Shown here: positions 4,416 to 4,626 of the stretch, piece by piece
Position numbering within the stretch: the first letter of the stretch is position 1
Layout: every line of letters starts with the position of its first letter
Origin: Candidatus Eiseniibacteriota bacterium
Lineage (GTDB): Bacteria > Eisenbacteria > RBG-16-71-46 > CAIMUX01
NCBI GenBank assembly: GCA_020431745.1
Contig: JAGQHR010000001.1
Location: 1 to 34,165, forward strand
DNA: 34,165 nt
Direction: 5' to 3'
The notes under the pieces: model-generated
Database searches by the model: none
Told to the model about the DNA's origin: nothing
What the model saw: the letters and a program-made list of their open reading frames with translations, nothing else
Made by a program: the position numbers and the translations under genes

Positions 4416-4626
4416 TAGCATTTTGGGTGACGGATGTCGGATGGTGATAGCATTTCTCAGTTAACTGTATATTGTTTTTTTTGACCTTATACCTACCTAG
4501 ACACAACGTGTCACCATCCGTCACCGATTATATGTCACCGAGTTTTCAATGGGTTACGAGGTGACGGATTGGTGACGGATATGACGGATATGACGGATTG
4601 GTAAATCTACCTAGGAGAAAACGCCG
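4416..4626. promoter_or_regulatory. AT-rich intergenic island with clustered GGTGACGGAT(GGTG) repeats (candidate origin, cos/pac or late-operon control region)
   Basis: TGACGGAT forward at 4428, 4562, 4573, 4582 and 4591. Reverse copy at 4516-4523 inside the 14-mer caccatccgtcacc (4512-4525). GTCACC half-sites at 4510, 4520 and 4534. TGATAGCATTT occurs twice (4413, 4444). T8 run at 4475-4482. CTACCTAG occurs twice (4493, 4607). Confidence 0.55.

Follow-up and report, generated by a model that had tools for sequence, protein, structure and literature searches.

A probable iteron-type replication origin downstream of the primase-helicase gene in a phage-like genome from Candidatus Eiseniibacteriota

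The 34,165-nucleotide stretch of DNA analyzed in this study (contig JAGQHR010000001.1 of a Candidatus Eiseniibacteriota bacterium, hereafter the window) stems from a phage-like genome, in which a primase-helicase is encoded by the open reading frame (ORF) 2187-4415 on the forward strand. Between its stop codon (4413-4415) and the ATG at 4627 lies an intergenic spacer of 211 bp, 4416-4626, which is densely packed with short repeats and is evaluated here as a candidate origin of replication. The repeat core TGACGGAT occurs seven times within the window and six of these copies are located in the spacer, with forward starts at 4428, 4562, 4573, 4582, and 4591 (the last four at a spacing of 11, 9, and 9 bp) and one reverse copy at 4516. 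The sole copy outside the spacer was found at 32781 on the minus strand. A preliminary description of the locus had listed five forward copies and one reverse copy with this spacing, and all positions were confirmed. The chance level was determined by 100 dinucleotide-preserving shuffles of the whole window, which contained 1.34 +/- 1.10 copies with a maximum of five; none of the 100 reached the observed seven. Shorter parts of the core are enriched as well: the spacer hosts six of the 37 TGACGG copies and six of the ten GACGGAT copies of the window, with 0.23 and 0.06 copies expected there, respectively. The complete iteron unit comprises approximately ten bases, RKTGACGGAT; a mutated form of its core is denoted TGAAGGGT. 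The 14-mer caccatccgtcacc at 4512-4525 and the half-sites at 4510 and 4534 (GTCACC, or GGTGAC when read on the minus strand) were likewise found as first described, together with a further half-site at 4520. In total, the spacer contains six exact copies of TGACGGAT, one copy with one mismatch, and three or four half or partial sites, a number within the approximately 6-12 sites of origins of the type found in Staphylococcus aureus pathogenicity islands (SaPIs).

Read from left to right, the element starts with a direct duplication of approximately 32 bp on the forward strand (4397-4423 and 4429-4455, within 4397-4460; repeat family D2, 27 nt, 74% identity). Each of its two copies ends in the 11-mer TGATAGCATTT; the first copy spans the stop codon of the helicase gene and the two together bracket the left iteron arm. 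The duplication of this 11-mer had been noted before, correctly so for the first copy (4413-4423); the second starts at 4445 (4445-4455) and not at 4444. It is regarded as real because any 11-mer duplicate was obtained in only 0.25% of the shuffles of the region. The left arm (4426-4447, forward) is composed of GGTGACGGAT at 4426-4435, TGTCGGAT with one mismatch at 4435-4442, and a partial GGTGA at 4443-4447, the first iteron starting 11 bp past the stop codon. It is followed by an AT-rich core of 62 bp (4448-4509), which contains the stability minimum of the window and is a candidate DNA-unwinding element. The core hosts CAGTTAACTG at 4458-4467, TATATTG, a run of eight thymines (T8, 4475-4482), and the first copy of CTACCTAG (4493-4500). 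Here, CAGTTAACTG is a perfect 10-bp palindrome containing GTTAAC, positioned directly before TATATTG and the T8 run. The middle arm (4510-4539) is in reverse orientation and consists of GGTGACGGATGGTGAC at 4510-4525, representing a full iteron plus half-site, and an extra GGTGAC at 4534-4539; with 4426-4436 it forms an 11-bp perfect inverted repeat (I3) around the stability minimum. After a gap of 20 bp (4540-4559), the right array carries four tandem forward RKTGACGGAT units (4560-4569, 4571-4580, 4581-4589, and 4590-4598) at a spacing of about one helical turn, which Tandem Repeats Finder reported as 4560-4598 with a period of 9 and approximately four copies. The degenerate start of a fifth iteron, TTGGT, extends this region to 4601. 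At the junction with the next gene (4602-4626, forward), TAAATCTACCTAG, with the second CTACCTAG (4607-4614) in it, overlaps the Shine-Dalgarno sequence AGGAG (4613-4617), which is situated 15 bp past the four-copy array and 9 nt before the ATG. The 8-mer CTACCTAG indeed occurs at the two positions given for it earlier, 4493 and 4607, and is given little weight on its own since 8-mer duplicates appeared in 23% of the region shuffles. The AT-rich center is thus flanked by opposed arms with two or more sites per side.

The composition of the spacer departs strongly from its surroundings. The guanine-cytosine (GC) content is 0.38 within 4400-4549 compared with approximately 0.65 for the window, and the T8 run is the only one in the window, in agreement with the AT-rich drop and the T8 run pointed out in the preliminary description. 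The least stable 40-bp duplex of the 34-kb window, 4452-4491, is positioned between the forward and the reverse repeat. Its nearest-neighbor free energy (dG) is -43.3 kcal/mol in comparison to a window mean of -61.9 (standard deviation 3.3), i.e., 5.6 standard deviations off. With almost all genes located on the same strand, the GC-skew profile carried no information, and a match to an integration host factor (IHF)-like site with one mismatch at 4544 was given no weight.

Considering the position of the spacer, the repeats could be operators or activator sites of the packaging and structural operon, with the core as promoter and replication starting elsewhere. All genes are co-directional and the spacer precedes the first gene past the replication module; the four tandem repeats stop 15 bp before the Shine-Dalgarno sequence, and a sigma-70-like match, GTGATA-18-TATATT, was detected at 4444-4473. 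However, this match is at chance level (one found, 0.7 expected), and the promoter and terminator scan of the spacer gave nothing above chance level. The least probable of the explanations considered, given hardly any credence, is that the spacer forms a structured RNA, such as a leader or a small RNA, or that the repeats are a mere coincidence. The folding z-scores of the spacer, -2.1 for RNA and -2.4 for a DNA hairpin, would fit the former, but they are modest, as from any inverted repeat, both are driven by the inverted repeats, and the scan of the spacer matched no Rfam family. Chance is excluded by the shuffles as well as by the layout, which recurs in related loci (see below).

The protein encoded upstream (2187-4415, forward, 742 aa) is the proposed initiator. 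Pfam assigns to it an N-terminal archaeo-eukaryotic primase (AEP) domain of the Prim-Pol type (PF09250), D5_N (PF08706), a superfamily 3 (SF3) helicase domain (DUF5906, PF19263), and, in the C-terminal region, Pox_D5 (PF03288). It scored 300 bits against the NCBIfam model TIGR01613, "phage/plasmid primase, P4 family" (cutoff 108.7). Sequence matches in the PDB were C962R of African swine fever virus (ASFV), poxvirus D5/E5, and PriRep5 of SaPI5 (PDB 7OLA), the last with E=1.7e-6 over query residues 441-701 at low identity. The gene next to the spacer therefore encodes an SF3 helicase related to Rep, PriRep, and gp-alpha. As a sequence-only search of the PDB with the C-terminal domain returned chance-level matches only, its fold was taken from a model. 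An AlphaFold2 prediction of aa 610-742, calculated from an alignment of 72 sequences, reached a mean predicted local distance difference test (pLDDT) score of 88 with the topology H-H-E-H-H-E-E. According to this model, the C-terminal domain (approximately aa 640-742, nt 4104-4412, forward) is a winged helix, proposed here as the iteron-binding module, with a beta-hairpin wing at aa 710-725 (nt 4314-4361, forward) and K715-D716 at its tip. The top matches retrieved from the PDB by Foldseek were the DNA-binding domains of RFX5 and RFX1, with template modeling (TM) scores of 0.74-0.75 (target-length normalized) and root-mean-square deviations of 2.0-2.4 A. Next in rank came the tail at the C-terminus of ASFV C962R and the winged helices of Orc1/Cdc6 in complex with origin DNA. 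The structure of the P4 origin-binding domain was absent among the listed Foldseek matches. The C962R tail, the origin-binding domain of P4 gp-alpha, and RFX1 have been described as one fold group (PMC10516667), and the winged helix of RFX1 reads the major groove by its wing and not by its helix (PMC4333399).

The arrangement of gene and spacer closely resembles that of the SaPIs. Their origins are located immediately downstream of rep and contain 6-12 iterons around an AT-rich center, at least two on each side and in opposite orientation; the C-terminal winged helix of Rep binds and melts the origin without ATP, whereupon Rep self-loads as helicase (PMC9371898). In the SaPI/PriRep5 system, as in the window, a primase-SF3 fusion ends in a C-terminal winged helix, which in SaPIs gives origin specificity, and the known or, for the window, proposed origin, with opposed iterons around an AT-rich center, directly follows the helicase gene and separates it from the packaging module. 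Several differences are evident as well. The window represents a 34-kb phage-like genome with portal, weak terminase match, and further large ORFs and not a satellite island, its iterons are 8-10 bp long (RKTGACGGAT) and not penta- or hexanucleotides, an extra four-copy array in the same orientation lies outside the inverted pair, and the organism has a high GC content.

An extension of the analysis to related loci showed that the array is linked to the helicase gene. We compiled 147 loci encoding relatives of the helicase from IMG/VR contigs, one genome per species, and metagenome contigs; metagenome-assembled genomes among them belong to Acidobacteriota, Chloroflexota, Bacillota, Actinomycetota, Planctomycetota, Myxococcota, and other phyla. 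The linkage test covered the first 300 bp past the stop codon of the helicase gene, with repeats counted on either strand. In the first set, at least four copies of an exact 8-mer were present in 24 out of 86 loci compared with 11 out of 3145 control windows, and at least three copies in 45 out of 86 compared with 146 out of 3145. An independent metagenome set yielded at least four copies of a 7-mer in 30 out of 49 loci. After de-replication at approximately 80% identity of the C-terminal domain, 94 helicase clusters were left, 46 of which carried at least four copies of a 7-mer (44 with both orientations), in comparison to 31 out of 1617 random windows (1.9%). The usual layout in these relatives consists of two to three tandem copies, a spacer of lower GC content of approximately 65-80 bp, and two to three inverted copies, with a period of 9-10 bp per arm and offsets from the stop codon of typically +3, +12 / +92, +101. 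The repeat motif itself varies by lineage and includes ATGACGGRT, ATGAAGGGT, GTGAAGGGT, ATGTAGGGT, GTGTAGGGT, GGTGACAG, AAGTGGA, GTGTATAG, and GGGAAGCA, among others. The motif type of the window, GTGACGGAT, also occurs in the loci L072 (13 copies) and L129, and the near variant GTGACGGGT in L087 and L102.

The genes following the array are far less constant. In the window, the first downstream ORF (4627-4848, forward, 73 aa) has no match in Pfam, PHROG, or NCBIfam; further small ORFs without family match, a candidate small terminase (5518-5952), and a weak large-terminase match in 5759-7378 follow. For the ORFs within 4627-5952 and the terminase candidate, no homologue was found in any of the 147 related loci. 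The best-sampled subfamily has the array followed by an unrelated 150-aa protein and ORFs that read, from their sequence, as ParB-like methyltransferases. Since the array keeps its place next to the helicase gene and the genes downstream of it vary, its constant partner is the helicase gene and not the packaging genes. This bears on two suggestions of the preliminary description, in which a cos or pac packaging site and an activator site of the late promoter were said to fit the spacer equally well. Sites bound by terminase in lambda and SPP1 consist of short repeats near bent or AT-rich DNA; the spacer resembles them and is positioned upstream of the packaging genes (5518-5952, 5759-7378, and a Mu-like portal), so that the repeats might be bound by the small terminase subunit. 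The distance to the candidate small-subunit gene is approximately 0.9 kb, however, with three or four small ORFs in between, and the element of the relatives is not followed by packaging genes: the only candidate for a small terminase subunit in those of their loci that were checked, read from sequence in L007, starts approximately 4 kb downstream. In addition, the terminase candidates of the window lack homologues in the 147 loci, and the repeats co-vary with the helicase wing (see below). A packaging site is thus very improbable in our view, and its equal standing with an origin is not supported. Regarding the activator site, the last repeat arm of the relatives also adjoins the ribosome-binding site of the next gene, in line with a regulatory function, but conservation of the arrays beside the helicase despite differing downstream genes speaks against regulation as their only role. 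Equal standing is therefore not supported for a late-promoter activator either, and a secondary regulatory role of the four repeats is possible. The direction of the gene behind each array was also assessed with a view to the promoter explanation, but the result was discarded: the crude longest-ORF caller was misled by antisense ORFs in high-GC DNA and mis-called the window itself.

Several further observations were made on the related loci. Within 7599-7832 of L072, an outsized array of TGTGACGGAT, the iteron type of the window, comprises 13 copies (5 + 3 + 1 forward, then 4 reverse), and a repeated AAGTCTATT-AATCAA box is placed ahead of each forward block. L082 carries two neighboring arrays downstream of one helicase gene, ATCCGTCA and ACCCTACA (2513-2653 and 2977-3130), each in forward/reverse arrangement; recombination may have left a double origin or a hybrid one here. 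Three conserved features were recognized between the iteron arms in the spacers of L002, L010, L039, L041, L066, L102, L117, and relatives at approximately +80 to +140 past the stop codon: in the best-sampled subfamily a TTATCCGC(A/C) box, which is DnaA-box-like (TTATNCACA), and a conserved AAGTC-TTTGTTTTCAACAGAC box ahead of the forward iterons, and in many members of this subfamily an alternating purine-pyrimidine tract (GCGCGCACGCAC). The spacer of the window contains neither the TTATCCGC box nor the AAGTC-TTTGTTTTCAACAGAC box nor the GCGCGCACGCAC tract.

The variation of the repeat motif between lineages allowed its comparison with the variation of the neighboring proteins. The loci L002 and L117 share approximately 90% identical DNA, and in the last 440 aa of their helicases the identity reaches 97%. 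Four of the 13 differences fall within the 16-aa wing (TMKGAL vs. TNRGFL). Between the same two loci, all iteron copies are switched alike from ATGACGGRT to GTGAAGGGT (ATGACGGGTTATGACGGAT vs. GTGAAGGGTTGTGAAGGGT), including those of the reverse arm, and the core between the arms is nearly identical. In a column test with seven loci per iteron type, we searched for alignment columns perfectly separating the two groups. Within the 855-aa helicase, four out of 210 variable columns were discriminating (M816N, K817R, A819F, and V824I), all of them in the wing. None was found among the 41 variable columns of the downstream 150-aa protein or among the 44 and 64 variable columns of the upstream orf131 and orf309. 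An earlier and cruder test with 14 helicases had placed five out of seven discriminating columns within 13 columns at the same place. In a further comparison, L002 and L007, with an identity of only 70%, have the iteron core in common and just two wing positions that differ, and L002 and L010 show 22 differences overall and none in the wing. On the model, the discriminating positions occupy the tip of the hairpin, formed by two residues, and the beginning of the second strand of the wing, and the equivalents in the window, obtained by manual alignment of the wing segments to the model, are K715, D716, and R718. The location of these iteron-linked residues fits the reading of the major groove by the RFX1 wing (PMC4333399).

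This co-variation also bears on the remaining explanations. With the adjacent downstream protein lacking any discriminating column (0 of 41 variable, seven vs. seven relatives) and the helicase wing tracking the repeats, and with inverted arms around the least stable duplex matching mapped SaPI origins, we consider regulation as the sole function of the repeats to be unlikely. A dual role as origin and regulatory site is possible and compatible with all data, so that it is only the exclusively regulatory explanation that competes with an origin. Arrays of short direct and inverted repeats are also typical of the centromere sites of plasmids and phage-plasmids. By this likeness, the spacer might be a centromere-like partition site or an array for another DNA-binding protein of a phage-plasmid, and two upstream proteins of the relatives did show some discriminating columns in small samples. 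Yet ParA/ParB-type genes are absent beside the element in the window, the array is linked to the helicase stop codon across many phyla, and the discriminating residues of the helicase lie exactly in the DNA-binding wing; a partition site is accordingly even a little less credible than a packaging site.

Taken together, linkage to the helicase gene (46 out of 94 clusters), co-variation with the wing, and the match to the SaPI layout (PMC9371898) favor the assignment of 4416-4626 as an iteron-type replication origin of a phage-like genome, served in cis by the upstream primase-helicase. We regard this assignment as likely and hold it with good confidence; it also supports the iteron origin with a DNA-unwinding element that the preliminary description had proposed among its options. 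By analogy with SaPI and P4, binding of the helicase, melting of the core, and initiation within 4416-4626 are inferred as the most likely course of events. The C-terminal winged helix of the helicase would recognize the iterons, (R)(K)TGACGGAT, and would probably insert its beta-hairpin wing into the major groove like RFX1. The inverted arms (4426-4447 forward, 4510-4539 reverse) would receive the assembling helicase subunits, as would the four-copy array at 4560-4598, which may act as an additional high-affinity assembly platform, and the 62-bp AT-rich core between the arms would melt. SF3 helicase rings would then self-load onto the opened DNA, the N-terminal Prim-Pol domain would lay the first primers, and a host polymerase would extend them.

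A number of observations weigh against this assignment. Each of the inverted arms contains only a single perfect iteron, accompanied by half-sites in the middle arm, and the strongest array, with four copies, is located outside the inverted pair and adjoins the ribosome-binding site of the next gene; a transcriptional or translational role of this array is possible. A DnaA box (TTATNCACA, up to one mismatch) was not found in 4380-4650. The co-variation was observed in a subfamily with helicases only approximately 43% identical to that of the window, and no protein with a similar wing was found among 120 helicase homologues. The collections searched contained no close relative of the window lineage, the best helicase identity being approximately 50-59%. 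Furthermore, an SNF2-like ORF and orf315, both upstream and with fewer usable sequences, show discriminating columns too, those of the SNF2-like ORF mostly in an extension of its N-terminus that is itself doubtful, so that a second trans factor is still conceivable.

Two readings that go beyond the origin itself, a specificity code in the wing tip and a coupling of replication to the late genes, are jointly rather doubtful and are put forward tentatively. Regarding the former, a short RFX-like code of two to four tip residues, at positions equivalent to K715, D716, and R718, may choose the 8-10-bp iteron throughout the family. Regarding the latter, helicase bound to the four-copy array may link replication to the expression of the packaging and structural genes.

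Comparison with further replication systems places the element within a known kind. Within phage P4, the winged helix of gp-alpha binds origin repeats, followed by unwinding and priming (PMC4234260). Like gp-alpha, the helicase of the window is a multifunctional primase-helicase of the TIGR01613 family, and on the basis of the model its C-terminal domain appears to fall in the fold group of the P4 origin-binding domain, RFX1, and C962R; the primase differs, being of the bacterial Toprim type in gp-alpha and an archaeo-eukaryotic Prim-Pol in the window. The P4 origin is built from the octamer TGTTCACC and a second distant site, crr, is required. Unlike crr, no second motif cluster is present in the window. 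In plasmid pRN1, the origin is situated 3' of the gene for a protein with Prim-Pol, SF3 helicase, and winged helix (PMC4234260), and this ORF904 shares with the protein of the window both the order of the domains and the 3' position of the origin. The origins of pRN1 and of Bordetella phage BIP-1 (BIP-1/BPP-1) are described as large stem-loops without iterons, whereas the window is dominated by repeats; its inverted iterons can pair into a long hairpin as in the pRN1 type, with a modest potential (z = -2.4). The iteron plasmids pPS10, R6K, RK2, and F share with the window tandem short repeats at helical spacing beside an AT-rich unwinding element, and with origins of its type the specificity between cognate initiator and iteron. 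In these plasmids, a WH1-WH2 Rep recruits the host DnaB, whereas the initiator proposed for the window is the helicase-primase itself; unlike them, the window has no DnaA box (up to one mismatch) and its iterons are arranged as inverted arms. A classical Rep/DnaA iteron plasmid origin was consequently rejected, with no DnaA box in 4380-4650 and an SF3 helicase as adjacent initiator. RFX1 (PDB 1DP7), which is among the best structural matches, is a transcription factor of eukaryotes that shares 16-20% identity with the domain of the window, and the likeness concerns the mode of DNA reading and not the function.

The remainder of the window underlines how remote this genome is from known phages. 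Beyond the terminase candidates, a Mu-like portal and then more large ORFs on the same strand follow, the portal being at most 26% identical to that of any deposited phage. When phage DNA was searched with the window, the sole match was 69 bp long and located in the primase gene, and a search of viral contigs for the tandem-array pattern gave no match. For the helicase, identity was at most approximately 59% to anything in 5.8 billion proteins and at most approximately 50% in the viral, genome, and metagenome scans. At the left end of the window, the ORF 26-271 (forward) looks by eye like the C-terminal end of a DNA cytosine-5 methyltransferase (WPTP...GYPxGWT), and the fragment 32786-33223 (minus strand) like the N-terminus of an SNF2-type helicase; given these ORF pieces, the window is part of a larger genome and not complete. 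ARAGORN called an 85-nt tRNA-Gly (GCC) at 9868-9952 (forward) inside the long ORF 8981-10213, which its length and position suggest to be a false positive.

A separate repeat system was noticed just upstream of the primase-helicase gene. Two arrays with a period of 36-37 bp and the conserved core (A)GAGCGAGCC(ATG) extend over 670-961 and 1692-1850, with at least eight copies of GAGCGAGCC at 705-961, four at 1717-1830, and a perfect 37-bp tandem at 1692-1765. They flank the ORF 735-1703 (forward), which is labeled as transposase in PHROGs. Its residues 120-294 match NF052498.1, "TIGR-Tas system RNA-guided endonuclease" (E=8e-41, 140 bits, cutoff 100). The true start of this ORF is probably later, as the first GAGCGAGCC array overlaps its listed N-terminus. 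Judged from its appearance, the element seems to carry a TIGR-Tas locus at this place.

The kind of element described here is already known; new is a member of it in an unrelated, high-GC phage-like genome. The origin assignment provides a function for the non-coding feature that stands out most in this otherwise unrelated phage-like genome, a result that is, for the window itself, reassuring more than surprising. For the family, it provides a working rule: next to a P4-family/D5-type primase-helicase, the origin can be sought in the 300 bp past the stop codon, as found in approximately half of the 94 lineages and across many phyla. The near-isogenic pairs, in which iterons and wing residues are switched together, hint at the way in which the specificity for an origin is encoded, and this could be put to use in building orthogonal replicons. 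If the wing code is true, orthogonal pairs of initiator and origin would be accessible by few substitutions, as the 97% identical helicases of L002 and L117 suggest.

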